Positions 21,387-64,000 of a DNA stretch of 64,000 nt are shown here, in pieces. This DNA comes from Balanoglossus misakiensis (Eukaryota; Animalia; Hemichordata): contig CM082576.2 in NCBI GenBank assembly GCA_040954595.2, positions 12,217,129 to 12,281,128 of the forward strand. Reading direction: 5' to 3'. The notes under the pieces are model-generated. The model saw only the letters and a program-made list of their open reading frames with translations. It did no database searches and was not told where the DNA came from. Within the stretch, counting starts at the first letter, position 1; each line of letters starts with the position of its first letter. A program made the translations under genes and the position numbers.

Positions 21387-21455
21387 GATGTTCGGATGCA
21401 GTGCGTTCAGATGGTCGAGTGTAGGTCTTCTTTGCGTGCTAGTGAGCTTCGGTCT

Positions 21456-21528
21456 GAATGAAACATGGTTCTGGCTTTGCGTCTTATATAGTTTTTTTCT
21501 TCTTCTAAAGTTCACTTAAGTTGAGTCA
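21456..21528 (-). promoter_or_regulatory. GST core promoter: TATA box, Inr and upstream AP-1 site
   Basis: TATATAA at 21490-21484. Inr-like TCATTC at 21461-21456 with its A 31 nt from the first T of the TATA box. TGACTCA at 21528-21522. Confidence 0.7.
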
Positions 21529-34357: not shown

Positions 34358-34392
34358 CATCATCATCATCATCGTCGTCGTCGTCGTCGTCG

Positions 34393-34488
<96 letters not shown>

Positions 34489-34520
34489 ACATTCAACATT
34501 CAACATTCAACATTCAACAT
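34358..34520. repeat. Compound microsatellite (CAT)n/(CGT)n followed by (CAACATT)x5
   Basis: Direct reading. It is the source of the poly-M/H/I/D/S ORFs in the track. Confidence 0.97.
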
Positions 34521-38985: not shown

Positions 38986-41900
38986 ATGGCGTATCCGGGA
39001 GCAAGGCAGAAGAGGACGACGAAAGTGGAATTCGAGCGATGTTTGCACGATTGGAAACCGGGTGTCGATGCATCCAAGGCGGCTAGAACAGCGGAGGAAA
39101 TAACAAGGAGGTAAGAGTTTCTGTAAAAAAAAAACCGCACTGAGTATATACAAAGATGACAATTGCGCTTTACTCGAATGATGGTCATCCAAAATTAGGG
39201 GGAGAATTCTCCTGTCTTTCACTGCGAACATCCATGCTGTCCCATACAACACATTTTATCGGTCACCACACTAAAATACGGGCGACGTGACATCGTGTAC
39301 ACGAAGCTTAAATTTTGAACCTTTTCGTTCTCCCCAAATCCCGACTATTCATTCGGAAGACACTACCAGTCATTCATTGCCACCGGAAGCATTGCGACGT
39401 ATTTCATTGGAGATACATAACGCTTGTTTGACCGAGTTTCAGAGGCCTTTCCGGGGGCCAAACCAGTAAAATGTACGGGTATGGTCACAAAACGCAATTG
39501 CTTCGCTCATGTTACAATCCCGAAGCCAAAATGGGTACTTAATTCTTTATTCCAAAAAGTTCGCGATGTTCGCATAGCTGAACAACTCTACGTGTTCCGG
39601 CGAAAAACACCGAGACAACATCTGTTGCTGCTAGTAGTCTTCGACTATTTGTCAGATCGTGTTACAAGAGGGCGAAGTCGGTCGCGTTCACAAATTTACG
39701 AGACATGATTGTAAAATGCACCGTCGATATATTAAAATTGGAACAGATCTTTACTACTGCAAATAATATATGTTGTAGCCTGTCTGTAATTGCACGGTAT
39801 GTAGTCACGGTTACAAAATATTTGCATGGCGATAAATCCACATTTTTTTTAATTTTTGGTTGCTTTTTGCGGTATCACTATCAAATGTGTTCACAGACCG
39901 ACCTTTCACCTGACCTTGCGCTAGAACAGTTAAATGTACTGGTAGGCACTCTTACACTCTGGTCCTCTGGATTAAATGTGGATTTTGACCTATTGACCTT
40001 TCGGGAAGACTTGGAGACTCGTGAAAAATACCATCGTTCTTTTTTCACATTATTTAGAGAAAAAATGTCATATAGTATAGTATACACTTAACATTTTATA
40101 ACTATCCACACCAAACAGTCCATATAGACGTCGTGAGATAAATTTAGATTTTAATGACAAATCTATTTATAAATACAGTAATATTGGTCGGTTGTACATT
40201 CCCGGCGGTAACAATTTGAACTCCGTGGGAAACACAGCCAAAATAGTGTTCATCTGGTAGTGTATGGTTGTGTAAGACGACATATTCCAGCAGTCTTGCG
40301 AAAAAAGTACATCTGTCAGACTTAACTGATTTTTTTTGGAAATGCCGCGGGAAAAGTATAAATGAATTTGCCGATTTGCCACAGTGCCGTCACCATTCTA
40401 GCTGCGGCGACCTTTAACACATAAGTCAAATGCAATAATGGCCACATGATATGCATGTTGGCAATTTTCCAGTATTTCTGTTCTGTGTATCGGCGCGGTT
40501 GCATTTTCTGGTTCGAGTCTCTTTCGCATGATACACTGCCTACTGTGCATATATTTATCAACTCCGAAGCGCCCATGTGTGCACGAATTGCATTGCTATT
40601 TGTCAAAAAAAAATCAAGATTTATATTCGGACTGAATTCATTTGTCAGCAGTAACAGTGGTCGTTACTCACGCTGACTCAGGCTGTGTTTAATAATCAGA
40701 ATTCTGGAACGTGTTGTCCAGCTGGCACGGGGAGTTGAATTGAAACCACAGACACCAAATTAAATAGCCAACTTCTGTCGCTTCACTACTCGTCACATTT
40801 TTAAAAAGCACCGCCGGTCTATACCAAACAACACCTTCTCAGATTAAATTTGTCAACTTTACTACATGGATTTCTTATCCATTTTCTTTTCACTTTCTAT
40901 TAAATCGCTTGATTTTTAGTGTGTTTTCCCTTTGATAACCACCGGTATCATCCGACAAGGGCGAACGACAGGGAATGAGAATTTTGCTTTGTCATTTTTC
41001 TTGAGTTGCATCCGCCCCATATAGTATATTTTTCGGTTCATGTTTAAATGTTCCTCGCGTTGTACCCACATGTTATTTCTATACGACTCTCCAGGCGTGA
41101 AAGATTGCTGGAAATTTTATCCGACCAAGATGCCTCCGCGATGGACGCCATTGAAGCTTTGCGACAATATCTTGAAATGCCTGTGAAACAGCTTATAAAC
41201 ATGGTAAGAATCCCAACAAGGGATAGGTGCTACTCCCCCGGGGCTCTCCCCTTAGAGGGGTATACACATACGTACCTTGGTTTTGACCCCCCCCCCTTCT
41301 CTGTCGCTTTGCTGTAAACATTTAACAAAAATACAAAAAAATAGAATTGTGCGATATTGACAACCATTGCAGGTTGGACGGTCGGTTTGGTTCTTGCGAG
41401 AAAAGAATAATCAGACCGACTACGAATCCAAAAACTGTGGTCATCACACGTCCAGAAAACGTGACACGGACAAAGCAATTCAAATCTAAGTGACATGCCT
41501 ATATTGATTGTTTATCACCTTTTCTCACCCTCAGGCGAACGGAACGGCAAATATCAGGTAAGTTCCTTTGAATGTTTCCGCAAACGCATGTTATAGATCA
41601 CGATAGTTAATGAAAACCTGACATTTCACTGTGTTACGGCACGCTGGCCGTTCAGTTCCGAAACAGGGCAGTGAGCAAATATAGTTACCACAACTAAACA
41701 TTGGTAAATCTAAAAAGATTGTACACGGGGAAGAAAACACACACAAAAAAAAATAAATGACTACCTTAAATGTGACCAGGTGTGGGAAATGAAAGAATAA
41801 AGTTCATGGTTCTGTAGCGCACGACGAACGCGACCAGCACCACGGCAGTCCCAACAGTGACGTTCAGTCCGAGTAGCGTTCTGGCACAATTCCCCGGTAG

Positions 41901-44900
41901 ACGGCACGGCTTTCAGACGAATTCCCCCATGAGGTAGCACGACTTCTGGGCGCGGTTTCCAGACCAGGTCAGCATGAAACAAGGCACAGCTTCCAAGCCG
42001 GCGAGGAACAGATTAACAGCTCACACGGGCAAGTCCAAATTAGTAGCAACGCCGCACACAACGTGCGGGCTTTTTATATGGGGAAAATAATGAATGCACC
42101 ACACCTGGTCACGCAAAATTCAAATTACGAAAGTAAGCGAAAACACACCTGGTCACAAAACAACAGCAAACTTCTCCTACGTAACAACTGTCTCTGACAG
42201 TTGTGGGCTCGACTCTGGGCCAACAATCCCAGCGCTAACTATTCCTCAAAAGTGTCCAGCATTCGTATCATGCCAGTTTCTAGAAGACGTTGGTTACAGG
42301 CTTCAAATAGGACACCTCTGCTTTAGACGTTACAGTTTATGTAATGAATGACTAACGTTATTCTGAAAATGCTGAACTGTCAATCGACAGGCCCTCACTT
42401 TTACGTAGTTCCTGGTTTGGACCTTACCACATACCCTGGGGCGATGCAGCACAGGCGTTGTATAGTATGCCGTAGTACCATAGACCATGGAGTGCATAGA
42501 CCCAGGGTATGGTGACCCGTAGTTGTCTCCCTCAGGAAAGGGCTTATATACGTTTTCCTATCTCAAACTGTTGTAGATTTTACTGGTTGAACACCGTCGG
42601 CAGTGAAGTCACAGTCCATTTCGATGATGCCATCTTCGACTTTTCCTCCATTATGATGAAGACGGCGCTGTGGATGAAGGAACAGGGTATCATCGTTCTG
42701 GCGGTAAGAGAGTTTCATAAGTGGCGATGAGCGCCAACAGCCTGTATTGAATTCAAGGGCTCCTGATATAGATTATGTCTGTCTGTCTGTCTGTCGGTCG
42801 GTCTGTCTGTCGCCAAAGTAAAACAGTACTGCCGTTACGCCCTTTTCACGAAATTGCTCCTTCTCTTCTTCCCAGGATCCTGAAAACTTGCTGTGGGCAG
42901 CTGCTATATTCGATTGTATGCTGGAATTGAATTTGAACGGATCATCGCCAGATTTACACAGTATGTGCCGGTTTATTCTATAATGATAATCATTATACGA
43001 GTTTTCTACATTCGCCCAATCAGTACACGACAGCTGAGTAACCCCGCTTCCTTCTTTTCGCAGGACAGAATGTCAGAGCGTTATCAGTGCAATGTTCGGG
43101 AGAAGCGTTGGTAAGTGTTAATATACCTTCATGAATTATTTTACACTGTGTATATAAAAGAAATTGCCCGAACACTGAGTGCCTTGCTCTGAGTGGTCAG
43201 ATACGAGCGTCCCTGCATGCAAATGAGAAATGACGAATTGATGACGTCAGGCTGTCATCGACTCGTGATGGCGGCGGCTAACAGTAGTCGACCAATGCTT
43301 ACGTATTTCTCCGACATAGCTCTTTCCTACGACACTAAAATTGTGATCACTGATATATATGTATTTACAAATCTACAAAGTTATGATAAAATGTGATAGT
43401 TCGAAAAAACTCATAATCACTTCCTCTCCTCGTCTCTACCCTCTTTACAGTTAATGAGATGTCGAGATAATCTAGAATTCTTGTCACCAAGTCAGTGTCG
43501 AGACATCGCTATTTTAGCGGCAGAGAGGTTTGAAGAAACGTTAAACATCATAGACGTAAGTAACATTTTGTCATTTATCCGTGAAATGGTATTTCATTCG
43601 CAAAGGCCTAACATATTGAAACCTTGTCCGTGTACTCAGTTGACCGGTTAGTTTTTGATGGTAGAGTGTCATACTATTGCTGCTTGTCTTTGCAGGGACA
43701 AACAGAAAGCGGCAAGAAATGGAAAGAGTTTGTGAAGTTTAAATGTAAGTATACTGAGATTTTACAACCACCGCATTTATCTTAAGTTATTGAAGACATA
43801 TGCCTATATACACATGCTGACCCACCAACTCCAAAGCTATGAGTGTGACCATCGACCATACAGGAGGGTTGATGGTGTGACTGTATGTATGCCATTCCCT
43901 CAATATCTTTGTGAATAGATCGCCAATAACAAGACACTATTGACGATTCTCATTTAATTTCGAACAGATAACTTGTGTTATGCACTAGCAAGGACATTTC
44001 AGTCGAAACTTCTCTCGGAAAAATTAAGGTAAGCATGCAGGTAGCAATATTCGGACCGTTTCATCTGTTTCAGCGTCTGTTAACTTCGACAAAAAGTTGA
44101 AAGTGATAAACCTAAATCCACGTGAAAGAGATGACGCCGGATTTCACTATTGCTCGCTGAAGCTATTTCCACACATGCGTGTTACAATTGTTGGAACTTT
44201 AACGTCAGGTACAGTGTTTTTTTGTCCTTGTCGAATTGTAGACATGAAGAAGCTATGTCTGCCGTAAAGCATGCCAAGTATCACATGAGACTGGCCAAAG
44301 AAAAGGCGGAGGTGAGTAGATACAGGGGGCGCAAAATCAGAACAGATAATCAGTGGTACGAGAGGGAGGGGAAAGAGAACGGAGAGCATAGAGGAAGAGA
44401 TAGGGACAGAGGGGGAGAGACAGAGGGTGAGAAGGGTGATTATATGAAATATGAGAGAGTGGGAAGTTGAAAGCAGTTTCTTGATCAGGCATCCTTATAT
44501 GACGTATATCGACTTGAATTTTTATCCTCAGGGCTTCGATGTATTTGATCCGGCGACAGTCATCACGCTATCACGAGGAGAAGAGTTTCGTAGGTCAGTC
44601 AAAGTAACATATTCACAGCATTTGTCCTCGTTTAAATGACGTGGCAATACAAACATTTATATTGACATTTATATTTATTATTAAAACCGCGAGTAAAAAA
44701 TGATAGTTAATGGGCCTAATGCTCAAAATGACATCACTATCTATATTTTTTTTTGTTTTTCTCGTTTTAAACTATTCAAGCGCAAGTTATAATTTGTTTT
44801 GCCTAACTTTCTTTGTAATTTGTCATGATTTTGTAATAAAAATATTTGTTTCAGAATCGATTTCTTGGTGGAGAAGAGAATACAGGAATGTGAGAAGATT

Positions 44901-45945
44901 TCAGGTCTCAAAGTTACAGACGATGTACGCATTGTAGGTTTTTGAATGTTTTTAATGTTGTGATTGCATTTTCCGTCCCCTTTTGTCTTTTACTCTAAAT
45001 CGAATAATAAAATATGGAAAACTTCCATATATGCACAAGCCACTATGGAAATATCCGAATTGTAGTTGAACGGGTATTATCTATGTTTATAACACGGTGA
45101 ATATTTCCCGTTGTTATTTTTAAAGGAAGCGAGTCCACTGCAACTCGGTCCAAACTGGGAAGAGCTGGTGGACCAGAGAGTGTTCCAGCTGCCGCCAAAG
45201 CAGTACAACACGTGAGTATACGTACGCGCATGCGTGTTCTTTCTGGCCCAGTCATTCTGAGGTGGTGTCGTTTGTTTCAATCCTAGCGGAAACTCATAGT
45301 ACATCACTTGTCACTTCATGTATTGTTTTTGCGGAGTTTTGCTGTTTTCTAGACACGCATTTCGAAGTTGAATGCCGTCACAAGATCATCTTACCAATTA
45401 TTGACCAATGCTCACAAATGTCAGACAAATTACTGCATTTGTATCTTTGTGATATTCTTTGTATTCATCTCCGCAAAAACGACATAGTCGTGAATATCTG
45501 AATGGTTTTTGCCGTTGATCACTTCTGGCAATCGATTAAATCATGTTTTTTGGTCAACCAATTCTTTTCTGGTTTGTCGTATAGATGGCTCGGGGATATT
45601 TCCAACGGAATTTCGAGTAAGTAGTGACGTCATCATTTCAAACGTTGAAATTTAACATCTCTTGATTTTCTTGTCAATACTGTGCTCCTATGAATAGTTG
45701 AAAGACATCCGTCTGCACGCTAAAGTTTAGTCATTTTCATTTCCCTTCCCTTGTCAGCTCCCGACGGAATACCCAGCGCTGACGAATCCGGTTTCGAAGA
45801 ACCATCGTGTTGTATAGTATGTTTGTCTGAGTGCATCGCATTGCCGCGGAGATTTGTCAGGTGGATGTTCGGCAAGTCAGACGACGAAGAAACGCAAATG
45901 ATCGCACTCGAGCAAAAACAGTACGGATCGAGCGCGGGCGAATAA
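38986..45945 (+). CDS. Divergent BRO1-domain protein, BROX-like paralog, 412 aa, 15 exons
   Basis: Exons 38986-39110, 41095-41203, 41535-41557, 42577-42703, 42876-42960, 43064-43110, 43451-43555, 43696-43744, 43968-44028, 44242-44311, 44532-44593, 44855-44924, 45126-45211, 45585-45616, 45758-45945. All introns are GT-AG with matching phases, giving 1239 nt. Colinear similarity to remembered human BROX: KRTTKVEF~KATAPVSF, RERLLEILSD~RARLLELFTD, FYWLNTV..DAIFDFSSIMMKTALW~FKWTDTL..DAVFELISMGFNVALW, LWAAAIF~KIAAGIF, VQCSGEA~IQCQAEA, KKWKEFVKFK~AKWRKYLHLK, LVEKRIQECEK~LVKNTLEKCQR, VFQLPP~PFEFPP. Confidence 0.85.
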
Positions 45946-48931
45946 AAACAAAAGAATCGATTCAAAGCCGACTCCAGGAGGTGTGAGGGCGCTCGAGAGC
46001 GCGAACTGCCATAGGATGACAAGGAAACCAAGTGTTTAATTCATAATTGGGGTAATTTACATATGTAAATATTTTTAAAAGCTGGAGATTTATAACTGTG
46101 GATCTTTTATTATTTTACTCGTTGGAAGTGTTTTAAAATGATCACTATTTATCGTGGCCACTGCTCAGCTAGGGGAGAGTCACTTAATATCAGATGCAAA
46201 CTTGAATGCAATTTATCTGAACTTCTATACACTATTTTTGTCAAGACAGCCCTACTGCATCAGACGAGTGGTCTGACGACAGTACGGTCTTGATCACTAC
46301 ACCGTATAAATATCACACACAATCACTCTCCTTTTTAATTGGTTAGTATACAATTTTCCACAGTCTTTACCTGTAGACCCCTTGTATTCGAATTGTATAG
46401 TACAGTAATTTAAATCTAAGCCAAGATTTCAATTTCTATATTAGTTGTGCAATATTAATTTTAACGTGTAAATATATCAATAAAGATTGTATAAAATACA
46501 GGTATCTTTGTCATTGTCTGTGTGATCTACCGTTGAATAAATGATTCTGTGTAGACAACTGCCTTGCCAGTAACAAATTGCTCATCTACTCTGACATGGT
46601 GACCGTCTCATGTGAAAGAATCTTACACACAAGAGATGTGTTAAGATCCCCTATCGTGAAAATGTTAGCCGGGCATCAAAGCCCGCTTTGCATAAATAAG
46701 CTCATGGGCGTGATCGGAATCTACGCATAAAACACGACCCACCTTAAATCAACAATTTCGGGCAAACACTTGAAACAAATTTCCTTTGTGAGACGAGAGT
46801 ACAGGTTACACAATAATATATAAAATTCAAAATATAATCTATAGACACGTTACAATATATTAACGAGAATGGAAATGCACGGTACTCCCAAGATATTAGA
46901 ACGTATCATCTTCGGCCCGGCCTACCTGTACATTATACCATACAATAGAATGGACACCAAAATATGATATTACAAATGTCATGTACAGAGAGATATAAAG
47001 AGTTTTTATCAGCTTTCTATAAACTTGCTAAAACATAATATCCCGTGGCATAAGACTCAAATTACAGTGCCAATCGTTTTCGTCTAACTGTTAGCTAAAC
47101 TTAAATAGCTTAGTATGGTAATTAAGATAAACCTAAGTCAAGATTTTTTTTATCGTGCGCATATATGCGCTGGCTGGATTCCATTGTAATGATACCTGTC
47201 GTCTGCGCGACACATTATCCAGTCTGACATCTGTGATTCATTTTTTTTCAACAACCAAATGCGAAACATAAACAAACCCCTCTTATATCTGTTAATTAGT
47301 AAAACGTTTTTGATTAACTATTGTCACGAATGTGAAACCTGTTCAGTTGAAGTCGCAGTTTCATTCTGGGGTGGTGCCTGGACATTCCGTGCCCAGGTGG
47401 ACGAGTCACTAATACTCGAGGTGTGCGTAGGAAGTGGACGATAGGCCTATAGTCAACGTTCAGCTATCTTTTCAACGTTACGTATACACCATCGATAAGG
47501 TTTTCTTACTACATTTGAATATAACATAAAAAGCCTGTGCATTGATGTGAACGGAAAAGTAAGGTATGTGACGTAATAACCCCTACAACGACTAATGACA
47601 GGTGTGTAGCCCACACGCAGTTGATCCAAGCAGCCAAACCCTTCGCGGAATTATACGTCCAGCTTTAGAAAATATGGTATAAACAATGTTATGAAGATAC
47701 ATCGAACTCTTGGCGGACTTGTATTAGTAATTTGAACGAGTTTTGGGACAAGTGTTTAAAAATTAATAGTTTTAATATATTGTTTATCTGTGGAGATACA
47801 TGTTTGATATTAACAGCCGACTGGCCTGATAACAATCAAACCTCTGACAAAACTTGATCGAGGTGAAATGTGAGTAATCACGTGATGGTGCCGAATGAGT
47901 CGACACGACAAACTATATTCATTCATTCACTTTTCCAGTCATTTGCTTCGCTCTCCAAGCTACTTATCCATACGATTTTGCACCGAAACACACACTCGGT
48001 GAAATATACCATAAGCGTGACTCCAAAATGAATACATTATTAATTGGGTTCAGAGGTCAGATTGAGAATTAAACAGCAACCGGGCAAGTGTTAACTGTTA
48101 TATTTTATCGACTAAAGTTTACAGTCTGAAAAAAACGGTTGCAAGGTTTTCTGGTCACACCGTGAGAAATACTGACCCAGATTGGTCCCAGCAAACCCAC
48201 TCAGCTGCTACAAACCACAGACTTGTGGACACTTAACACCGTGATGTCATGTTCAACATTGAAGGGTAAGAAGTGGTAACCATAGGGATACGACACCATT
48301 CCCATTTCAGGACCTACAGCTTAGGAACATCATACCCCCAGCACATATAATACCCGATTGCCCGGTTTAACTACGCGGTAATAGCAACCTTTGTACAGGT
48401 TATACGCGAGGAAAATCAGCCGAAGCACAGACAAGACTTGGCCACTCCAACAGGTGGGTGAAATAATCATCAGAAATCTCTATAATAGTACATGTCCGAT
48501 TCGAACGGTTCAAGGCTGGGATTTTCTTTATCAAATCTACCAGTGATAGTTAACTCATTAATTAATGTGATATTTAATTAAGCAAGGATAAGCACCGCGT
48601 AAAAATCTATGTCAATATTGGCAGACTTTGCGCGTCCAGCGTCACAGGTGCACTAATTAGATTTAGCATCTAAAATATGCATGTCTTTAATTGAATGTGC
48701 TGAAACAATACCCTAATAAATATCATCGAGAATATACTACGGAGTATACTCCTATGAGATTTTAAATTTTCTAATTGTTTAGGAAGGTATATTCACTAAA
48801 AGGGCGTTATGTGGTAATATTTTGAAAGGGGATACAACGTATATTATGCTGAAGATAAAAATTATGTTAAAAATATAACGATAAACATAATTTCTTGTCA
48901 CACTTTTGGTCTTTTACTTTTTTATCAAGCT

Positions 48932-49482
48932 ATGTCGGAAGAGGAACCATCGGGCTGTCAGAAATGCTGCACCATTTTTCTGAAGATTTTGGCGCTGATA
49001 GTTTGCATACCGGTCGCTGTCATACTCACAGTCTACGGTTTATTGATATGGTTGCTGCTACTTCTGAGTAAGTACATCTACAAATGTCAAGAACCATTTG
49101 TGTATCAAGAGCGTTGTGCTGTGACAGGCTGACCATTGTTGCATAAGTTTATCGGGGTGAACAGTCTCGACGTTGCATTCATTCTGTTTTTAGCGACTTT
49201 AAATAAACATTATATATACACACCTCATCATTTTTGCAAAAGTTATAGGCCTACATGTATCACTAGTGTATTAATCAAGAACACATTTTTGTTTCTTGCC
49301 CACAAGTTCGTTGCTGCTGTCCGTGTTGTTCGCCGTGCATCATGTGCTTGCAGGCGATGCTGGCGTGGTTGACGAAGCTACCTTGGCGCTTTTGCAGATG
49401 GGTTGTCGGGAAACCAGCGGACGACGACTACGACGAAGAAAAACAGGTGTTCTCCGACGAGAAAGCCCTCTACGGAGACTGA
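48932..49482 (+). CDS. Small Cys-rich membrane protein, 103 aa, TAXIMIN-like (2 coding exons)
   Basis: Exons 48932-49067 (donor A|GTAAGT) and 49307-49482 (acceptor after a pyrimidine tract, stop TGA). Protein: MSEEEPSGCQKCCTIFLKILALIVCIPVAVILTVYGLLIWLLLLLIRCCCPCCSPCIMCLQAMLAWLTKLPWRFCRWVVGKPADDDYDEEKQVFSDEKALYGD. An acceptor at 48928-48929 precedes the ATG, and a candidate upstream exon lies at 48399-48453. Confidence 0.8.
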
Positions 49483-50229: not shown

Positions 50230-52670
50230 TTATTTTGTATGTTTTTTTATTCACAGGAATATATTTCCAGGAGTATTGGTTATTGCGTATAAATGTTACA
50301 TATAAAGTGCAGTAAAACAGTACAGGTTACAATAACAATAGAATTATTAATATAATTAACAAAATTACCTCCATGGAAAATTTGGAAATAGCAATTCAAA
50401 ATCAATCCCTGAAACTCAAAAGCATTGTGTTGTTAACACATCCCCCTCCTCACAAATGGAATAATCTGATGACACCCAAGGTCAAAGTTCAGAACAAGAA
50501 TTCACCATTTCATTCAAATGGGTAAAATATAGTCAGGATAAATTCAAAAATATTCTGCAACAAATGTGTAACTCTTTATTTTAAACACCAACAAAATATG
50601 AATTCAGTTTTTCCCAGGTTTTAGTATAAAGGTCTAGGAATCCAAAATTGGTAGGTATGGCGACAGTTTCAAATCCTAGCTATACAACTGTCTGACCTAC
50701 ATTCAAAAAATACTAAACACCATAGCTTAGATGGGTCAATATTGTAACATATATATATAGACTGGTTTCTCCATCACCAAAAATATACATACACAGTATT
50801 ATGTAATGAAAGAAATTAAGCTGCATTTTCCTCTCTCTCTTTAGTCTTCTGAAGACGTCCATGATTAACTACTAATTCTCTACATCTACTATATAAACAT
50901 TCAGGGCTACAAAGCTGAAATATTAAAGGATTGTGCACGTAAGTCACAGTTGCTATGGAAACTGTGATGTATATTAGGCAGGTGTTGATGAGATATAACA
51001 AGCAAGACTATAAAAAATAGCAGGACAACTGAGGGAACTGGTATGATTTCAGGAAGGGAGGGCCCCTTAAGACTAAGATATACAGCACCATTGTAGGCTC
51101 CCTAAGACCATGATAACTTGCTGCAACCACAGTCTCTTTTAAAATGGGATTGGGATTGTTCAGACAAACGGGCGACTAAAATGAGTCTACTCTGAACTAT
51201 CTCTGGTTGAAGCGAATGGAATTAGGCTCTTCAACCGCACTGCCGTTATGCAATGGATCACATGACTCCCACACCTGATCACATGACTCCATGCAAATGC
51301 ATCAAACCCAAATCACTATCACTATCTCCCACAAAACCCATTTATACTGCAGCATGGGTTTCTAAGAATGATTTGCAGTTTGTCGAGTGCAACTCTTTCT
51401 ATTAAATGGAAATTTGTCTTTAAAAATAAAGACATATTTTTTTGTTTTCTACCGGCTCTGGAATAACGATCTAAATACGAACTTCAAATCACTGTAGTTC
51501 TCATAAATCTGACAGACTGCACCAACTAAAGTCTTGTCTACTTTAAAGGTTATTGCAAAAATACACAGATTCCTGGATACACAGCAGCACCAAATTCAAT
51601 AATAAATTCATCCAATCCAAATGAAAACATCACATATTTCATTATTTTTTTTTAGTGAAAGTATTAAAGAAATCCAATACAAAAAGCAATCCACACATAT
51701 TTATGGACTTTCCACCACAAAATCAATGACTCCACCTTTAAAACTCCTCTTCTCTTTTTACATTTTATGACCAAATGTTAATGCTGCAAAAAAAAACCTC
51801 TAATATTTTGATCACCACCGTAAAAATGATGGGAAAAATGCATATAGTTGTGAAAGTGACTTTCACCCACCAAAGAGTCCCGTTTAAGTAGATATTTGGT
51901 AAATTGTCACACGAGGTGGGTAAGTATAAATGTTCCTTCCAGACACAGTCACGCCGTCATTATTCGTGCCATGTCGACCGCCACAAAACACCACACATTG
52001 ATAATTCTTTGCCAATTATTTTTGATTTCAACATTTAAAAAAAATATCTAATACACTTTCCCTTCTAAGCTATGCACAAAGCATAGACGTTTACAGAAAA
52101 CAATAAAATTGTCCCCGCTTTCACGGACATAAAAAACAAAAACATCCACCTCTCAAGAGAAAGTAAAATTGAAACCAAGATAATAATACACACGAGGTAT
52201 CTAATACTGATCAAAACATCAAAAAGCAAAAAAGTGGATGAAAATTTCAGATCGACTACACCGGACACACCGCTAATGCTAAATACATGTATTAGATAAT
52301 TATACTGGTGTCAATTAGTGGTAGGCAAGGCTCATAAAGGATAAAATATAGCTCTAATCAAGAACAGGGTTACCCATGATGACTTCAGACTTCTACACGA
52401 CCATTGTCTTTATAGTAAAAATGTCCCTAACATTAAAATATGTCCAAGATAAAGAATAACTGAAATGATTGAAAATGTACAGAGCTACACCAGCACAATC
52501 TGAACAATTCATAGGTTGTAAATAATGATTACATTAACAAGAGCAGCAACAACACACCCACACCATAAATGATTAACAGCGTGCCTTTTTTCTTCTTCAA
52601 ATAAACATACTTCGGGTTCACAACCAGCGGAAAATGAAGATAAAAACAGAGAAAAAAAATATCTTGGCGT
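50230..52670 (-). other. Probable ~2.4 kb 3' UTR of the spectrin gene
   Basis: AT-rich, CpG-poor sequence below the stop codon. AATAAA on minus strand at about 50246-50251, though other AATAAA hexamers also occur in this interval. Confidence 0.5.
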
Positions 52671-55600
52671 TTATTTCTTCTTGTGATGAAACATCGATCC
52701 GAACACTCCCCTCTTCTTTTCTTTGTCTTTCTTCTTTTTCTTGTCTTTGTCCTTCTCCCCGTGTTTGCTCGTGCTGGCCGGCAATGTGGCCGCTTTCTTG
52801 CCGGATTCGGCCGCCGGCGGAATGTACTCGGCTACCAGGGGCTCCTGTTGTTGTTGTTGTTGTTGATCGTTTGTTGGCTGTGCTGCGTCAAGAGACGGTG
52901 GTGCCTGTGAAGGTGCGGGTGCTGGCCGCGGAGGCTCAGCTGGCGGTGCTTGGTGGGGTGCGCTAAAATTATCGTTAGATGAGAGACTAACTGCGATAGG
53001 CTGTGCGGAAGAATCTGCATGGTAAGGTATGGCCGTGGGCGCGCCATCTTCTGGACCTTCAGACCCAGGATGCTGTAAACAAAAACAAAACAGCAGACGG
53101 CAACAGACAGAGAAAGAATGAGAGAGAGAGAAAAAAATCAAGATATCAGTGAGAAAGACAATTTTTTTGCACAGCATTTGTAGATTTACAATAATAAAAA
53201 CAATATATTTGTTAAAAGGGTTAGTAAAATATTTATTGAACCTAAGGAAAGTTGTTCTCTATTAGTGTTTTTATTCACACAGTTTTTTATTCTTACCACC
53301 ACCAGACAGACATACAGGGACGTGGAGTGTGCTTACTTTTACTACATGGTGCAGATTTTATTTTGATGAGAATGTTACCACCACCGATGTTTTTAAGTTA
53401 GTGAATATCATTGTGGAAGGAAGATTTGGATTAATGGCAACCTGGAAAGAGTACCGAGAGAAAAGTTTAAAATGAAGATGGCAGAAGGGGAATCGATAGA
53501 AAAGGACAGAAAAAAAGGGGTGGTATTCGTGTCGGGTGTCTTGTTAATATCGTTGATATTTCACTTGGTTCGGATTAGTGTATGACCCCCTAGGTTGACG
53601 GGAATAACTTAGAGGTCTTCTGTGTATAGGCAATGGTACCTGAGCTGGTTGTCCGTTTTCGACAAACGCCTCAGCCTCGGAGCTAGGTTGGTCGTGAGCG
53701 GTGGGCTGAGGGGTTTCAGGAGGAAGGGGAGAGGGTTCTCGTGCTGCTTCTCCTGCAGAAGATGTTCACCAGGAAAAAAGAAAGGAATAAAAAAACAGAA
53801 ACACGCGTGAAGAGAAACACAAAACAGGCAAAGAAGTGAGGGAGGGAAAAAAAACCTGGAAAGATCCGCAATCCGATGAGAGTTTCCAAAAAAAAACCTG
53901 GGCATTCAGATGATGTGAAAGTGATGACACACAGAGCAAGGCGCTTGGCACCGAAAAAGTCCTAATACATGTACGCTGAAAGACAGGCTTCTTTTGCAGG
54001 CAAACAGAGGAAGAGACTTTGAATGCAGCGTTATTATATTTTTTTTGCAAATGCTTTTTTTTTTTTTGCAAATGCTTAAAGTGATGGCCATGACATTCTT
54101 CTTTACATTTACTCTCTCATACCGTTGTTCTCTGTACATTCATTTTCCATTTAATGGATTCTGTGCAATATTCCACGATTAAACTCTTGAAAAATTTTGA
54201 CAACATGGCAAAATGCAATCCGCGTTCACATTTCAAGGGAGGGGACCCGAGTACCTACCGGGCACGTCTTCTTCCTCGGGAATCTCACCAGCAATTATTT
54301 CAGTTTCCAATAAGTTTGTGGGATAGCCTGAATAGGAATGCCTGACTATGGCGTGCTCTACACTGTCACTATGCTCGGACCCAGTCAGGGATAAATTGTC
54401 ATGAGCTCCGGATCCGCCGCTAAAGTCGGACATGTCTGCCTCGTCGCGGTCGTCCAATTTCCTTTCAAAGCGCGGGCTGGAATTTTGTTTGACCGAGATC
54501 TCGACATCGACATGGGGCGGCGGCAACACCTGGTGGTCGAAGACGCTGCCGTTGCCAACGTCGACGTCATTAGCGGGAGGGAGCAACGGAGGGGGGATCT
54601 CGCCCATGAAGGTGGTCTCTGGTGGTGGGGTTACGGGTAACACGGGCGGTTGCTCCACGGGTAGCGTGGGTGGCGGTGGTAGTTGCGACAGTGGTGGTGG
54701 TGGTGAGGACTCGGCCCGACCATTCTCGTGGGGGGGAGGAGGGGTCTGAGTCGGAGGTGCAGCCACTACGAAGGCGTCGCCACTACCTTTGCCGACCGGC
54801 ACGGGCACGGCCGCAGAAGACTCCACAAACTCTCTCCTGGGAGAATGTCCCGGCGAGTGAGAAGACAGAGAGGAAGAGCCTGAAGTCGGCTGAGAGGATA
54901 TCGAAGCACTCTTGCCAGCGGAACCAATGTCAAGTCCCCGGCTCGGTTCAAAGTCGGTCAGTTGCTTAGAAGGAGGCAAAGCTGCAATGCAAAATAAACG
55001 ACAAAAAAAAAAAACATATACAAGTTCACAACACAAATAACGGGACATTTCACTCGACAAAGAAACGCGTCAAACCTCATCTGAACATTCGCAATCTTCT
55101 CAAGATACTGAACAGTTCAAAGATGTCTTTGTCAATGCAATTCAAGTGTACGGAAATATTGATCAGAATTGACCAAATTGACAAAAATGTCTACCGCAAT
55201 TTCATTTTGGAATTCAGATGAATCTCGATATTCTAAATGAGGTTTAACCGCATTGCAAACTCAGGACTGAACCACTGCACAGCACAGAAGCAAATACTGA
55301 AAATGCCGCATATATAATTACGCGAGGGCGGAAAGAAAATGCCAGACATCTAAAATAAATTATCATTACAAAATACATTAACTATTCTGGACAACGGCAC
55401 CAGATTTTTTCACAAAGACTCACAGGCATGGAAGTTGATCTTGGAAATCCAGTCATTCATGTCTTCTTGAGATTTACATACAAATAAGAACTCTGAACCA
55501 TCACTGGTTCTACAAAGGAAAAGAAGGAGACAATAGGGAGAGAAGAGTGAGTTTTTATATCCTGTAATGAAGTGTACAGTTGGTTTGGAACACATTTTTA

Positions 55601-56661
55601 TAAATTATCACATTAGCGAATTCAGATTTTTCCTGGTCATATAAAAATGCTTCTGCTGCAACTGCTGTCTTCAGTAAGTCATTTCATCACTTGACCAGAT
55701 GTCAAAGGTCATTCAGGGTTAAAGGTCAACCGAGGATCATTGAACTACTCTGGTATCAGGGTATTGTCACTTACATTTGACAACCCTTGGGCAATCCAGA
55801 TATTGCTAAGTTTGTCATTGTGGGTCAGTTCAAGATCAAAAGTCTATTAGGGAGGGAGAGGTCCAATGGCGATTTGGGGGGGGGGGGGGGGGGTGTTTAC
55901 TCACTTGAGCCTGAATACGTGTTTCCTCTTGGTGTAGTCAGTGGCAACAGAACAGTGGGCTTGGTGGAGATTCGCAGGGGGTGCTGCAGCATTGCTCTGT
56001 AACCATGGCAATCAAAGAAGACAAGAGTTTTAGGAACACAACAAGCATCATAGGCAAGACTTTGAAACATGATGGATGCTTGAAAAATCCCTTTAAAATT
56101 TACTTGAAATCTTATGAGATACTTATATAAAGCGAAGTGAACTAGTATGTATGCAACAAAAATCCACATAATGATAAATCTTACCATAGTAAATTCTTTC
56201 CTGTCTTTGAAGAAACATAGCATCTGCCCGACAAGAGCTGCATAAAAGGTTTTCCATGACCTGTGTGTCGACTACAGAAAAAGAGATGGAACTCAATACT
56301 GGGACCAAATGGTGAAATACACATCACTTGTGACTCAAAGGGGGGAAAGTACCAAAACAGTATTATTGTTCATATCACAAGTGCTTACCCGTTTTCCACC
56401 AGCAGCTAGATCCTGTTTCCTTTCCAAAAGTCCCTCCTTTTCCAAGGGTGTAGGTTCTCCAGGCTGAAATCAATGTGGATGATAAAATCAGTGTGGGATT
56501 AAAACTCTAGCCTAGTAAGTTCAGACTGATGTCTGAGTATGTGTATGTCTGTCTGTCTCTCTCCAAGTCTGTCTGTAATTGTGTGTCCGTCTGTCCATCT
56601 GTCCGTCTGTCTGTCTGTATGTATGTATGTATGTATGTATGTATGTATGTATGTATGTATG

Positions 56662-56694
<33 letters not shown>

Positions 56695-59600
56695 GTACCG
56701 TATGTGTCTTCATGTATCAACGTATCTGTCTGTCTGCACATTTATGTACAGGCATTTCAATTCCAGATTATGCTTAAATTAACAGTTTTCCCTGTCATTA
56801 TTTTAATTACTGTTGTGTGTGTGTGTGTGTGTGTGCACGTGCAAGTGAGTGTGTCATGGTGTTTGTGTCAGTGTATACATTGGGTCAATGCAGTTACGGC
56901 AACAAAACTTTGTATTTATTCACAGTTTTGTATTTTATATCAATTTGGTTGTACGGCAAGTAGTGGACTTTCATCCCCCTCTCTAACATGCACTTAGGCC
57001 AGGCACTGCTTTTGAGCACATAAATATAACAGGCTCCTTGTACCAAAACCTTTCACCGAAAATTAAAGCACTGAATGTGAGTATTCATGATGATTACTTC
57101 ATATACATGTTATACAAATGTAATCAGTGTAGGGCAACAAGTAGGAATAACCCACTCATTCAAAAATTGGAAAGGAAACACATGAAAGAGAGAAAGACAG
57201 TCCACACAGAATATACTTAGTACATCAACACTTTGTGTTTTATGATGGGGTGAGATCAGAACACACAGTTTACTACACGTAGTGCAGAATACATTCAGTA
57301 GAGATACCAGAAGAGAACAACAAAAGAGTTTCTCTTCTCCCCTCCCAACCCTAGAAACCCCTAAACTACATGTACGTCTTTGGTCATTGCGCATGGTCTG
57401 CAAAGCCTTACTTTTTGTGTGTGTCAAGGCCGCTTATGGCTTACGTGGTACATGTTCCTTTATAGGCGCGGGCTTTGGGGTGCACTTTGCAGGGCAGCTG
57501 ACGTTGTGAAGGCTAGGCTAGCACTACGTCTACATATGACGAGTTTTCTCGTTTTTTGTTTTTTTACCTGCGTGACGCTATGAGACTCACCATCTTGAAT
57601 TTTTGCGCCTTGGCAGCTTTTTTGCCACCGCCACCGCCACCACCAGCGACACCGACACCCCCGCCACCGGCAGCAGCACCGACAACGGCGAATCTACTGC
57701 CGCCGCTGCTGCCGAAGCGGGTTCGGGTGTTGTCCTCCTTTTTGTGAGCCTTAACCACATGCTTCAGTTTCTTCTGTCGAGAGAGACGTGTGCGATGAAC
57801 ACAGAAGGGCGGGTGTGGAGACGACAGCAGACACACAGAGAGAGAGGGAGAGAGAGATTAAAGAGAAAACAAATGAACAGTACCCGCTGAGAAATGCCAC
57901 CATCACATAACGAAACAGAGTCGTATACAGTCCCTTTTGTGACACATGATAGAACTTGAAACAACATGCAATATATTGTCTAGTAAAGGTGACGTTAAGT
58001 TGGCAAAGGGTAAGATCTGAGGTTTGGTTTGCATAGGTATGATCACAACAAATGATGATGATGATGATGTTAAAGATGAAGTTCACAGAAAAGAGCCGTT
58101 TCCATGCCAATGTCTGTTTTTAACCCTACAGAAAACTAAGCATCACCAGAATACAGGAACCCCTGGTGTTCTACGGGATCCCAGTGGGCACTGAATCTAC
58201 CCAGGCTTTAATCCAGCCAACTTGCAATTGGCAGGCGCAACATTCGATTATATTATTGCTTACCATTACTACCATGCTATGGGAAAGTTTACTGGAATGC
58301 CGTAGGAATGGGTTTTGTTTAACAGCGAGCAATGATAGCTGTAGTGGATGCAGTATGTAGTGGTAAGTCGCATGGGTATCGCTGATATCGACCAGACAGG
58401 GAGGTTTTTTTTAGTCAGGGAGGGCAGAGGTCAGGGGTTAAAACAACTCTAACTCTCTAGGGATGACCTTCCCTGGGTTAGTACCATAACAACTATCTTT
58501 ACATGTGAGGGGTAACCTTTTTAACATTCCATGCATGACTGACTCCTCTAATCCTACCTGCTCCAACTCTTCCTGCAGTTTCCGCTCCATCTCCGCCTGT
58601 CTCTCTTCCCGCTGCCTGGCTTCCTGCTCCTTCCGTTGCCTCTCCTCCTCGATCCGGGCGGCGATCTTCCGCTGCTCCTCTTCCCGCTGCTTCCGGGCCA
58701 TCTCTTCCAGGGCCTGTTTGCGCTCCTGCTCCCGCCGCCTCTCTTCCAGGATCCGGGTCTGTTCCCGCTTCTTGATCTCCGCCAGTCTCTCTTGCTCCTT
58801 CCTTTCTTTTTCCTCCTGTTTGTGCTGCACCTCCACGTCTCTCTGCTTCTGGAAATCCTCTTCCAGCTGAAATGCGCATCATAATACATTTCAGGCACAA
58901 TTGCAGATCCAAACGATGGCAAAATTCTGCCATATGATAACTCCAGAGCACTCAATACCTGCTAGAATTTTATTTCCCTTAATTTCCAAGGCAATCATTT
59001 GAAGTCTATAAAACTGCCTGATATTTTGTTGCAAACATTACACCACAGTGAAATGGTCACGTTCAGGATTATAAATATCATTTCAGTGAAAATTATCCAC
59101 TAACCATTGTCATTCTCTCCAACGCCTTAAACCTGTCTTCCTGGGCTTCGATGGTCTTCTGAAAGTCTTCATGGCTTTTGATCATTTCCTCAATATTGCT
59201 GCCCTCCACCTGAAACACAGAAGTTACTGCATCATGTCTTACATGTACCACACCTAACTAGTCCACACTGCTACTTACCACACCTAACTAGTCTACACTG
59301 CTACTTACCACACATAACTAGTCTAAACTGGTACTTACCTTGTATGATTCATCCCTAACCAATGGTTCTCTGGCTGTCAACCAGGCCTCGGCCATGTCCA
59401 CATCCCGTTTGAAAAGTTGCGTGTCCAGATTCATGTCGTACAGAAGCTTGCGTTGATTCCATGTTTCCAGCAGTGTCTTGAAAGCTGCGTTTAATTTTTG
59501 AACTTTCTCTTTGATCTACAAAAGTATATAAACAAACACCATGAAAGCCTTATTTTTATTGGCTGAACATTTTTGTATCCTGTATCACTGAAGGAACATA

Positions 59601-62600
59601 TTTTGCAATGAATAGTGAACACCAGTGTGAAGGGTCAAAATCTCGAAGTGACCACTTAATTCAATGAAGTCATTTTACCTCATCGGCCAAAAAGTGACCA
59701 TTGTCGATGAGCTGCTGTCCGTTGTGGGTGAATTCATTAATACTGCTTGTCCTGGCATCGATCTCTGCTCTGTGTTCCATGTGTCTGGCTATGAGTGCTT
59801 CAGCTCCGGCCACGTCCTTGGCCAACTCGTCTGCTGTGATCAGAGCCATCATCCCCGACACCCAGGCACTGTCAGTCAAGAAAATAAAAATACGCAACTG
59901 TGAGAAGAAAAGTACTGCAATGGAGAGTGTAAAAACCACTTCGTGTTATTTCATTTATTTTATTCTATCTGTGATCCAACATGTGAAAGCCCAGTTGCAG
60001 ATTGAGGAAGGCACCACTCATAACGAGAAGAGCAATGAGAAGTACAGTGCCTTGAAGAAGGGCACAGCATCGCAGCCGTATGTACATGTAGGTCTGTCTT
60101 GAACTCGCTATCATCTGGTAGTGAGTATGGCCATTGGACTGCAATTCCTTGTATTTTACATGTCCTAACACTGTACACAGTAAACATTACAGAGACAGTC
60201 GACATTTTAAAAAAGTCAACTTCAATATATCGTAAGTGTATCTGTGTTGTAGCTAAAATGTCACTGCAGGGCTTAAAACATTATTTTTTTAAATTTTTAG
60301 ATGAGTGCAACGCAGCACTAACAAGTTCGTATTTTACCTTAATTCTCTATAATTATCGAAGTACGACTGCAGTTGTTCCGATTGGAGCAGTTTATCTTTC
60401 CTCTGGTCTGCCTTCCCGAGAAGTAGATTCCAGGATTGTACAACTTCTTCCCTCTTTCCCATGATTCTGTCGCTGGCCTCCGGATGCACTTCCACAAGTT
60501 GTTCAGCCGTGTTGCAAATTGCTTCCACCTGTTCTCCTAGGGCAGCAAGATCTCTCTGTGAAAAAATGGACAAAAAATCATTCTCATTAAGGACATAGGT
60601 CTGATGTCTATTTCTATAAGAATGGGGATTTTCTGACTTGAACAGGATAAATATTAAAAGTATATCCATAATTAAAATAGATGATTTTGAAAGTTTTTTC
60701 ATCTCTCATTACAAGTTCACTATCTCAAACAACAATTTCTAATTTGGATTCTAAAACCCTTCACAAAAAAATCTAGATTACGATTTGGGGTATGTTGCAT
60801 TTTCCTTTCACCATTAGCAAACACGTGGCAATTTTTTCTCTATAAACTTGACTTCATCTTACCTCAATACCTTCATGTCTCCTCAGAAGAGCATGAACAC
60901 TGACCAGATCGTGGCCAAAGTCCTCACTGGACACTGATGAGCCCTTCTCTACGATCCATGCTCTGGTCTCGTCTGCATCATGGTCAAATTGATGTACCTG
61001 CTTAGCACTCGCAAGGGCCTGGAGGCAAAACACAAGTATGTACATTACAACACAGGTCAGCAATATGTCACTTTAAGATACTTTTTCTCCAGAGTAACAT
61101 TCTAACATTTCATTTGAAAGGGTACGATTAATTGCAGTAAAACCTGTCTAAATCGAACACTGTCCAGTCTGGAAACCCGTCTATACCAAACTCAGTTTTC
61201 ACTCCTTTTCACACAGAACCACATTGTTTAAAGAAACTCTATAAACTGGACACTTCCAGTAACCAAACAATTTTTTTTTCAGTCCCCTTAATGTTAAGTT
61301 TAGACAGGTTTTACTGTATACATGTATCAAGGTCTTAATAAAGAGAATGCAAACTTTTGTGAAAAAATATTGGAAAGTATAACACACCACTGCCCACTTA
61401 AACAGTGATATGGTTATTTTCTGGAGTCTAATCTGAATGGAAACTTGCCTCTATTCTTGTATTGGTCAGTTCTTGCAGCTGCGCCCACTCCTTGTTGACG
61501 TCATCGCACTTGGCGTGGATGTCATCGGCGTTGTTGTGGCCTTCCTGTATCATTGCACTCCCCATCTCGTTCACGGCCGTTATCCTGTCGGCGTTCGAAT
61601 TCAAGTCCTGCGCAAAGTCCTCGAATTTCTTCTGCAGTATCTCCACGTGTTCCAGGTCCTTTCCGTAGTCTTCCGACGACGCGATGCCTTCCTTTTCCTT
61701 CATCCAGCCCTCCACCTCGTCCACTTCCCGGTAGAACTGGTAGAGTTTCCGGTGCTCCATCAGCAGGGCTCGCCTCGTCGTGGACAGCGCGATCAGCTCG
61801 GCGTAGCTTGCTTCGACTTCATTCTGAAAGTTGTGCAAATATACAGGCCATCATGAAACCACTTGTTCAGAAAGATACCACATACTTTCTAAATACTACA
61901 TTTGGATCTGCACAATTGGTACCGAATGAGCCCATGAAATGAAAGTGTGCAAATCTCTGAGATACAAGTCTAATGCAGCAAATCACATCAGCTGTTGCAG
62001 CGCAGTCTGGTTTCGCATACCTGTTTCTGAATGATGTCTTCACTCTCAAAGTGCTCCCGTTCGACAAGGCCGCTGCTCAGTTTCTGGAGGTGGGCAACAG
62101 TGTCTTTGAAACCCTCAAGATCTAGATCTAGGGCTTCCAGTTTCTTCAGGAGTGCCTGGACCGAATCCTCGTCCTTGCCATAGTCGGAGCTCGTCAACAG
62201 AGGGCGCTTTTCTTTCATCCAGGACTGGGCCTCCTGCACTTCTGCGTAGAACTGTTGAGTGAGACAACATTGCACACTCAGACAAATTCAACAAAAATAT
62301 ATTCATTCCTAAGGTTTAAACAGTGAAACTTAGAAACTAAAGTCAACCACCTTCCTTGTGAAATGATTGCCACATTCTGCCATGCCTGACTTTCTTGTAT
62401 TTATTTATGAATTAAATCATCACCATCATCATCATCACCACCACCATCATCATTATTATCATCATCGCATCATCATCTTCATTGCCACCACTACCACTAA
62501 CACCACCATCATCATCACCACCACCACCACAATCATCATCACCGCCATCACCACCACCATCTTCTCCCCAATATACCACATACCATTTGAGATTCCAATG

Positions 62601-63890
62601 CATCCGTCAAGGTCTTCTTCCTGTCCGCGGCCACGTACTTCAACTCATCCAACATCTCCTGCAGTTCAATGCTTTTGCTTTCAATGTTATCACTGGCATA
62701 GTGTTTCTGACTGACCAGGTATTCTCCCCTCTTTGTCACTGATCCAACCAGAGGTTCGTGCGATTTGATCTCTGCCTCCAGTGCCTGTCAACAGCAAATG
62801 ATAAACCATCAGTATTTTGCTTTAAATAGCACACGTAAAATTATTTTAGGATAATGACAAAATGTCTTGATTTTGATCAAAAACAAAAATAATTTAAAAT
62901 AATTGAGAACTTCACTGAGAGCTGAACACTTTATGAAAATACTGGAAGTATTTATGTATACATCTCGGATATAAAATCTGGGAATGTTGGCTATTAAGTC
63001 ATATCCTAAATTTCCTGTACACAACAGACACAAGTCAGTAACAAATAGAAAGATCTAAACAAATCCAGACTGAAATTCACACAACAAAGAATTTAATTAA
63101 AAAAACCTGAAAACTCTGAAATTTCTCACTTGATGCTTCTTCATCAGGGACTGCACAGTATTCAGATTCTGTCCCAGTTCTTTGGAAGTCGCCAGGGGCT
63201 CTTTCTCCCGGATCCACGACACCTCATCTTCCACATCCCTGTAGAACTGATAGAGCGACCGCGCCTCCTCCAGACTGGCCCTCCTCACTTGCATGGGTTT
63301 CTTGAGAGCCAGGTATCGCTTGGTGACTGCGTTGGCCCTCTCCGTCAGCTGGTCGGCCAGGAAGTGGCCGTGCTGCTCGAATTCCTCCGCTTGGGCCTTC
63401 ACTTCGTCTATCCTCGGTTGATAGTTGACCACCTGGCTTTCAAGGTGCTGGTGTTTCTTCAACAGGTAGTTAATACTGGTCAAATCTTTACCCAGGTCCT
63501 CAGACGCTAGTTGTATCTCTACGTCAACCATCCAACTGTCTAAGTCATCAAGGTTACGCTGGAACATCAGAGCCTGCAAGGAAGATGCAACAATTTGTGT
63601 GAACATGACCCCCGTCACAGCAGGAATGGCAATTTTCACCAGGAATTTCATAACGCTTGCCCCACAAACACCAACTTCTGACCACCACAGAGCCCAGGAA
63701 TATCTCAGTGAAGGAAATGTGTCTAAGGAAATGTTGGAGAATTTCAACTCACATGATAAGATTCCTGTAGTCTTTCCTTCTTCTCCGTTGACTTGTCGAC
63801 CAACTGTTCCCACGAATGCTCAAGCTCCGTCAACTTGTGCTGGATTTCTTCCGATGCAAAGTGCTTGTTCGCGATGAGTTGGGATCCCTC
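52671..63890 (-). CDS. SPTBN5: Beta-heavy spectrin (SPTBN5/karst/sma-1-like), 3' portion: spectrin repeats, charged helix, PH domain, Pro-rich tail
   Basis: 19 phase-consistent exons: 63890-63753, 63573-63130, 62784-62584, 62251-62021, 61823-61449, 61018-60863, 60555-60338, 59868-59679, 59515-59339, 59209-59105, 58866-58558, 57773-57591, 56463-56389, 56271-56185, 55996-55905, 55509-55424, 54981-54259, 53752-53640, 53072-52671 (~1434 aa). Repeats such as DYGKDEDSVQALLKK and DELAKDVAGAEALIARH. PH domain EGLLERKQ..RSWKTFY..DYTKRKHVFRL..MNDWISKINFHASLPP. Basic C-terminus. The gene continues beyond the window end. Confidence 0.93.
56540..56690. repeat. Compound (GTCT/GTCC)n-(GTAT)n microsatellite in spectrin intron
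   Basis: Direct reading. Confidence 0.95.
59251..59340. repeat. 30-bp tandem repeat x3 containing the spectrin splice donor
   Basis: CACCTAACTAGTCCACACTGCTACTTACCA and two variants, at 59251, 59281 and 59311. Confidence 0.9.
61135..61316. mobile_element. 182-bp Tc1/mariner-pogo-type MITE in spectrin intron
   Basis: Perfect 18-bp TIRs CAGTAAAACCTGTCTAAA (61135-61152) and TTTAGACAGGTTTTACTG (61299-61316). Flanks are TG and TA, consistent with a TA target duplication carrying one change. CAGT termini. Confidence 0.8.
62418..62560. repeat. Degenerate (CAT/CAC)n microsatellite in spectrin intron
   Basis: Direct reading. Confidence 0.92.
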
Positions 63891-64000
63891 CTGTGTAAGA
63901 CAGACAACAATGAAACGAGGTCATGAATGATTAGCCTGGAGTGGACTCTTATTTTTAACCACAAAAAGGAAAGAGATTGAATGAAGTAAGCTACACTGTA

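Follow-up and report, generated by a model that had tools for sequence, protein, structure and literature searches.

A divergent BROX-like gene of Balanoglossus misakiensis whose predicted last exon is a shortened copy of a neighbouring, likely TAXIMIN-related membrane module

Results

A BROX-like gene and a small cysteine-rich gene on one strand

We analysed a stretch of 64,000 nucleotides (the window) of the hemichordate Balanoglossus misakiensis (GenBank assembly GCA_040954595.2, contig CM082576.2, positions 12,217,129 to 12,281,128 of the forward strand), in which a BROX-like gene lies upstream of a small gene for a cysteine-rich protein. The BROX-like gene was rebuilt as 15 exons (38986-45945, plus strand) with introns that are all GT-AG and an open frame of 415 amino acids. 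Exons 1-14 encode residues 1-353, a divergent Bro1 domain, and exon 15 starts 141 nucleotides past exon 14, in phase. The small gene, on the same strand, comprises two coding segments (48932-49067 and 49307-49482) joined across a GT-AG intron and encodes 103 amino acids. All splices of the window genes are predicted.

The 15-exon model is validated by its colinear match to a protein of the acorn worm Saccoglossus kowalevskii, the 412-residue "BRO1 domain-containing protein BROX-like" of LOC100377511 (XP_002732401.1, hereafter P0001). The two are identical at 215 of 400 aligned residues (54%), and the identity per exon across exons 1-14 runs from 27 to 73%. We call the window gene BROX-like because of what this orthologue matches. 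P0001 contains one Pfam family, BRO1 (PF03097; 35.1 bits, at the cut-off). Against the PDB it finds human BROX at E 6e-7, compared with E 0.57 for yeast Bro1. Its Atlas structure model (predicted template-modelling score, pTM, 0.74) has BROX as the best match (template-modelling scores 0.68/0.73), the Bro1 fold being assigned in this way from a model of the orthologue. Searched singly, the individual window exons gave no Pfam BRO1 match and no PDB match. Like human BROX (PDB codes 3UM3, 3R9M and 3ZXP), which is the best PDB and Atlas match via the orthologue, the window protein has a single Bro1 domain and no V domain; the low scores against BROX point to a fast-evolving BROX paralogue.

Exon 15 is an old, shortened copy of the small-protein module

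The tail encoded by exon 15 (62 open codons) is homologous to the small protein. Their local BLOSUM62 score is 82, a value reached by 0 of 10,000 shuffles of exon 15 and 0 of 10,000 of the small protein (maxima 59 and 56), nor by any of 10,000 shuffles of the whole 415-residue protein (maximum 62), and a tblastn search of the window with the small protein finds exon 15 at E 7.5e-6. An earlier sequence-only reading of this DNA had placed both peptides correctly and had proposed their kinship, which the shuffles bear out. The motif pattern that it listed as common to the two was found, with the correction that the tail extends five residues past YG. It had also seen identity persisting in the DNA, and both words that it quoted do occur twice, but this signal is weak: the same codons stand at 11 of 22 synonymous sites, against 10.7 expected at saturation, and the best 47-nucleotide DNA match ties the best of 1000 shuffles. 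At the protein level, in four blocks chosen for alignability, the copies agree in 23 of 36 residues and, among second codon positions, in 31 of 36; that choice lowers nonsynonymous divergence (dN) and favours conservation. The insertions and deletions between the two copies are whole codons. Such agreement of the proteins at synonymous saturation argues that the exon 15 copy is old and has been maintained as protein. The EEPS match is marginal as a peptide (144 of 5000 shuffles) and stronger as DNA, with 11 of 12 nucleotides alike. MAFFT misaligned the exon 15 tail and exon 2 of the small gene, and a two-row profile was therefore not used. Two further candidates were dropped: a recent duplication of the module, because of the synonymous saturation, and relics of the module in the spacer between the copies, which were looked for and rejected.

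The exon 15 tail is without a membrane-spanning helix (best 19-residue Kyte-Doolittle score, KD19, 1.17) and has no methionine ahead of its amphipathic helix, while the membrane-spanning stretch of the small protein reaches a KD19 of 2.89. This supports the proposal that the module was duplicated and that one copy lost its membrane helix by an internal deletion. The amphipathic helix of 18 residues (hydrophobic moment 0.54, net charge +2) sits beside four cysteines, and the description of the tail as cysteine-rich and amphipathic with an acidic end holds. Cysteine clusters beside amphipathic helices are typical S-acylation sites. We read exon 15 as fused to the BROX-like gene because of the strong tract before its acceptor (11 of 12 pyrimidines), the in-frame phase and the AATAAA at its stop codon.

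An animal protein family reminiscent of plant TAXIMIN includes the small protein

With its acidic N-terminus and a 19-residue hydrophobic core (residues 28-46), the small protein looks like an uncleaved membrane anchor. When 1.84 billion proteins were searched with HMMER, using exon 2 of the small gene as query, 14 relatives came up at E <= 0.001. The top relative, at E 9e-11, is P0001, and free-standing relatives in Dimorphilus, Owenia and Asterias are among the 14. Word-based protein searches with the same exon and with exon 15 gave no match.

The sequence-only reading missed the resemblance of the small protein to TAXIMIN of plants (TbTAX, Arabidopsis TAX1 and TAX2; PF28483). For one relative, P0003, the top three Atlas clusters are all TAXIMIN (PF28483) at 0.83-0.85, a feature score that serves as a lead only. 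Two tomato TAX peptides from the supplement of PMC10515272 have, by eye and if one residue of slack is allowed after CPCC, G-x2-[IV]-W, W-x7-C-x-CPCC and C-x12-K-x-P-x5-W in common with the small protein. The relaxed second half of the TAXIMIN spacing pattern fits the small protein and 14 of 14 HMMER relatives. PMC4526920 describes TAX as secreted, very hydrophobic, encoded by two exons and membrane-localised when tagged. The likeness lies in the spacing of helix and turn, the two coding exons and the binding of the tagged peptide to membranes. The plant form differs in being described as a secreted, plant-wide peptide, whereas the animal forms gain an acidic tail with YG, and one window copy is fused to a Bro1 domain.

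An AlphaFold model of P0003 from 14 rows is a helical hairpin (residues 3-44 and 46-74) with a predicted local distance difference test score (pLDDT) of 74 and a pTM of 0.44; the single-sequence model of small-gene exon 2 (pLDDT 52) is uninformative. Foldseek gave no match of the family model in the PDB, a Pfam search gave no TAXIMIN match in a release that may predate the PF28483 model, and when metagenome contigs were scanned with a DNA pattern of TAXIMIN-like genes, none of at least 119 loci had the downstream motif. We regard the small protein as a member of an animal family that resembles plant TAXIMIN and is its likely relative. The exon 15 tail has neither the hydrophobic helix nor the CPCC turn and fits neither TAXIMIN spacing pattern; judged by its sequence, it is a derived TAXIMIN-like fragment and no member of the family.

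The Saccoglossus orthologue carries a fuller module

LOC100377511 has a second RefSeq model, XP_077863372.1 (P0015). The C-terminus of P0001 is a fuller copy of small-gene exon 2, scoring 161 against the small protein and 87 against exon 15. In P0015, exon 14 is followed by a piece like the N-terminus of the small protein (score 47; 0 of 5000 shuffles), and its C-terminus translates the P0001 tail DNA in a different frame, a correspondence that holds for 42 codons in a row (200 shuffles gave at most 9). When the 29 codons before this frameshifted stretch are put into the P0001 frame, they force a cysteine and a tryptophan at the distance of C25 and W40 in the small protein, 15 apart, and at 28 of the 29 positions a hydrophobic residue is possible (background 271/349). 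The split codon of P0015 lies six codons past that tryptophan, and the intron of the small gene is placed alike. Both parts of the module stand after exon 14 in the Saccoglossus models: the predicted BROX-like exons continue into the complete module with its membrane helix, and P0001 jumps ahead to the end that lacks the helix. Residues 381-449 of P0015 are likely a frameshifted reading of the membrane-helix and tail exons, and the annotation may need correction.

The Saccoglossus gene is a colinear orthologue with the same cysteine-rich C-terminal module, and it differs from the window gene in that its module is fuller (a CSPCC turn, and the membrane helix in the locus), that no shortened copy was seen and that the database names of its proteins are silent on the tail. 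Since these models join exon 14 to the whole module, the fusion likely preceded the shortening and is likely older than the split from Saccoglossus. The new recruitment of a local shortened copy, as it was first proposed, is not supported by this comparison. GKS, MIAL and YGS occur in the exon 15 tail as in that of Saccoglossus, and EEPS as in the small protein, which is expected if one ancestral module duplicated after the split from Saccoglossus. No free Saccoglossus copy of the module is among the 14 HMMER matches, small genes being often unannotated. In one tree, the small protein and the Saccoglossus tail are grouped with support of 90/93; the trees were built on 37-57 columns.

These models could also be artefacts that fuse neighbours, with exon 15 an unspliced relic of a duplicated small gene. 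The two models do disagree on the 3' end, one of them being frameshifted, and the join of exons 14 and 15 is a prediction. A relic would hardly keep 62 open codons, whole-codon indels and a protein conserved at synonymous saturation, however, and exon 15 offers no methionine for a start of its own before the helix, lies in phase 141 nucleotides past exon 14 and would satisfy the need of the BROX-like frame for some last exon. We consider this explanation very improbable.

The Bro1 binding surface is poorly retained

Human BROX is the reference for the surface. In PMC3230590, CHMP4B is no longer bound by the K141E and L212D mutants (its text and its legend differ as to K141/K144), and the CHMP4 tail is bound at 98 uM. 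H204 is needed for CHMP5, and L350 and I354 for Nesprin-2G (PMC8657813); Y348 shapes the CHMP5 pocket (PMC4751086). The residues of surface 1, which binds CHMP4/CHMP5, were taken from PMC3230590 and PMC8657813 as K141, H144, R145, H204, L208 and L212. Four of these six fall in gaps of the HMMER alignment to human BROX (31 bits), in which A140-R145, with K141, H144 and R145, and H204 have no counterpart. L208 is changed to Q (S in Saccoglossus) and L212 to I (T in Saccoglossus), and N327-Y331 and Y348/L350/I354 are not retained. The sequence-only reading had carried binding of ESCRT-III (CHMP4/CHMP5) over from canonical BROX. For the window Bro1 domain this was overstated, and such binding appears doubtful. 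The exon 15 form also differs from human BROX in having no CAAX, by which BROX is defined and on which it depends (PMC3230590, PMC8657813); farnesylation of C408 is required for targeting to the nuclear envelope (PMC8657813).

Arabidopsis BRAF/ROWY1 (AT5G14020) provides an analogue. As described in PMC6141507 and PMC11374797, it is a Bro1-only protein that is S-acylated for membrane targeting, does not bind SNF7/CHMP4 and competes in ESCRT-I, at Vps23 (PMC6141507); its acylation is dispensable for root function (PMC11374797). BRAF differs in being acylated at the N-terminal Cys3 and in having no captured module.

Alternative 3' ends

Four in-phase acceptors follow exon 14 (phase 1), at 45758, 46377, 48930 and 49307. 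They rank 58th, 13th, 22nd and 48th among 320 AG sites by an acceptor matrix that was built from 13 acceptors and is too small to carry much weight. The second of them opens a candidate mini-exon that ends in a CaaX box, CIVQ-stop. The two strands of the window, 128 kb in all, contain eight CaaX-stop sites, of which this is the sole one with a good phase-1 acceptor, and about 0.03 such sites are expected by chance in the 3.3-kb gap, with the CaaX pattern and the acceptor cut-off chosen by the analyst. No homologue of the mini-exon was seen. The loss of prenylation was overstated in the sequence-only reading, as the in-frame candidate exon may retain it.

On this evidence, the mini-exon could be the main last exon, the protein being farnesylated like BROX and exon 15, perhaps with the far module, serving as alternative ends. 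The frame with exon 14, the CIVQ-stop, 9 of 12 pyrimidines before the acceptor, AATAAA signals downstream and the low chance expectation agree with such an arrangement, as does the dependence of BROX on its CAAX. Yet neither Saccoglossus model ends in CaaX, and the mini-exon is located past exon 15 and its polyadenylation signal; we judge this arrangement unlikely. That the CaaX exon and exon 15 are related as DNA was considered and rejected, since 154 of 300 shuffles matched their likeness of 13 of 15 nucleotides. A donor-like site, GTATGT, stands within exon 15 at 45817 (phase 0, directly after CCI) and could pair with phase-0 acceptors at 46364, which also ends in CIVQ, or at 48986, in the membrane helix of the far copy.

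The small open reading frame (ORF) is in frame with exon 14 via the 48930 acceptor and also keeps its own methionine. By its frame, the far copy may be an alternative 3' end of the BROX-like gene instead of a second gene. The opposite arrangement is one of two separate genes, in which the last exon of a canonical BROX that binds CHMP4 is a shortened local copy acquired recently. It would accommodate the retained methionine, the candidate donors that a free small gene could use to end a non-coding first exon (ranked with a matrix from 14 donors of the BROX-like gene), the EEPS word that both window copies have and Saccoglossus does not, and the free-standing relatives in Dimorphilus, Owenia and Asterias. 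Against it speak the join with the whole module already present in the Saccoglossus models, the synonymous saturation, which does not favour a recent capture, and the loss or change of BROX binding-surface residues, and we give it little credence.

Table 1. Features of the BROX-like gene and the small gene in the window
Feature	Position	Strand	Remarks
BROX-like exons 1-5	38986-39110, 41095-41203, 41535-41557, 42577-42703, 42876-42960	+	GT-AG, open frame
BROX-like exons 6-10	43064-43110, 43451-43555, 43696-43744, 43968-44028, 44242-44311	+	GT-AG, open frame
BROX-like exons 11-14	44532-44593, 44855-44933, 45126-45211, 45585-45616	+	phase 1 at the end of exon 14
Exon 15, shortened TAXIMIN-like module	45758..45945	+	linker, EEPS, Cys cluster, amphipathic helix, acidic tail, YG
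AATAAA	45941..45946	+	overlaps the exon 15 stop codon; further AATAAA at 46479 and 46536
Candidate alternative last exon	46377..46408	+	in frame with exon 14; 10 codons; CaaX, CIVQ-stop
Candidate donors (free small gene with a non-coding first exon)	47564, 47870, 48266 (47564..48271)	+	weak by donor matrix
Intact module, coding exon 1	48930..49067	+	EEPS, Cys cluster, membrane-spanning helix; ATG at 48932, acceptor 2 nucleotides before
Intact module, exon 2 (phase 1)	49307..49482	+	CCCPCC turn, amphipathic helix, acidic tail, YG; AATAAA at 49973

Surroundings in the window

A tandem repeat of 88 bp occupies about 8.8 kb (3216-11979; GC 29%), with units 95-98% alike and interrupted by a 67-bp variant. 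On the minus strand, an ORF at 14516-15163 contains the start of the Pfam Spec3 domain (E 3.9e-6), another small membrane-protein family, and glutathione S-transferase exons lie at 17916-21515 (GST_C_3 at 17916-18287 and 18934-19143; similar ORFs by eye up to 21515). The 3' part of a spectrin gene, presumably of the beta-heavy type, runs on the minus strand from 52500 to 64000, convergent on the small gene, with repeats at 61431-61850 and 63100-63819 and a long proline-rich, charged tail; the gene can serve as a synteny marker. Long CAT/ATC microsatellites at 34358-34520 and 62416-62561 give rise to spurious poly-His/Ser/Ile ORFs.

Discussion

We hold with moderate confidence that exon 15 is a shortened copy of the adjoining cysteine-rich membrane module and the predicted last exon of a divergent BROX paralogue, that the fusion to this likely TAXIMIN-related module likely predates the split from Saccoglossus, and that the tail would hold a Bro1 domain, likely no longer CHMP4-binding, on the cytosolic face of a membrane. 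The interpretation of the sequence-only reading is on the whole partly supported.

The course of events would have been as follows. In the ancestral gene, the BROX-like exons would have read into the whole module, which would then have been duplicated in tandem in this lineage. The near copy would have lost the membrane helix, the intron and the CPCC turn, in a deletion that sets in right behind EEPS and extends up to where the amphipathic helix begins. The far copy would have remained intact and serve as a free gene, as an alternative 3' end or in both roles. In the protein, the four tail cysteines would be S-acylated and form, with the basic amphipathic helix, a reversible anchor. Acidic-dileucine-like motifs sort proteins to endosomes and lysosomes, and the acidic tail with its ExxxMI and YG motif might direct the protein there. 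By analogy with plant BRAF, the worn Bro1 domain would be a scaffold or competitor and not a recruiter of ESCRT-III. YG follows the helix in 14 of 16 tails, and a relaxed acidic-dileucine motif followed by YG occurs in 7 of the 16, including both fused tails, the rows being kin.

Several points weigh against this explanation. The join of exons 14 and 15 is a prediction, and its acceptor ranked just 58th of 320. The joins in Saccoglossus are those of predicted RefSeq models, of which P0015 is frameshifted relative to the module. The fusion is known from two species only, and a word-limited search with P0001 returned only P0001 itself among 5486 candidates. The trees leave the order of events undecided, with approximately unbiased (AU) test p values of 0.35-0.45 for four groupings, and the choice of codon blocks leans towards conservation. 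At the binding surface, the change of L212 to I is conservative, and R198 is possibly retained if the gap slides. The strict dileucine motif is found in 0 of 16 tails; the relaxed form was picked post hoc, and the small protein is without it.

A bolder proposal, which we think improbable, would see one gene in which a worn Bro1 domain is given three interchangeable anchors through alternative last exons (the acylated tail, the farnesyl CaaX and the whole TAXIMIN-like module). In this view the fusion would mark TAXIMIN proteins, those of plants among them, as endomembrane anchors linked to ESCRT and not as secreted signals.

A literature search that left subscription papers outside its range found no description of a fusion of BROX with a TAXIMIN-like module. 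The titles and abstract openings of the "taximin" literature named no animal protein, and a search for "BROX" with "hemichordate" gave nothing relevant. In the literature examined, TAXIMIN is treated as a secreted plant peptide with no known receptor or mechanism.

The observed likeness is real and recurs in a second species, and we read the gene as a BROX paralogue whose anchor is likely related to TAXIMIN. A likely animal relative of TAXIMIN fused to a Bro1 domain points for the first time to membrane sorting as a possible partner pathway and makes it testable whether the TAXIMIN-like module is an acylated membrane anchor. The domain fusion exists in two forms, with and without the membrane helix, and these seem to have been hard-wired by exon duplication in one lineage.

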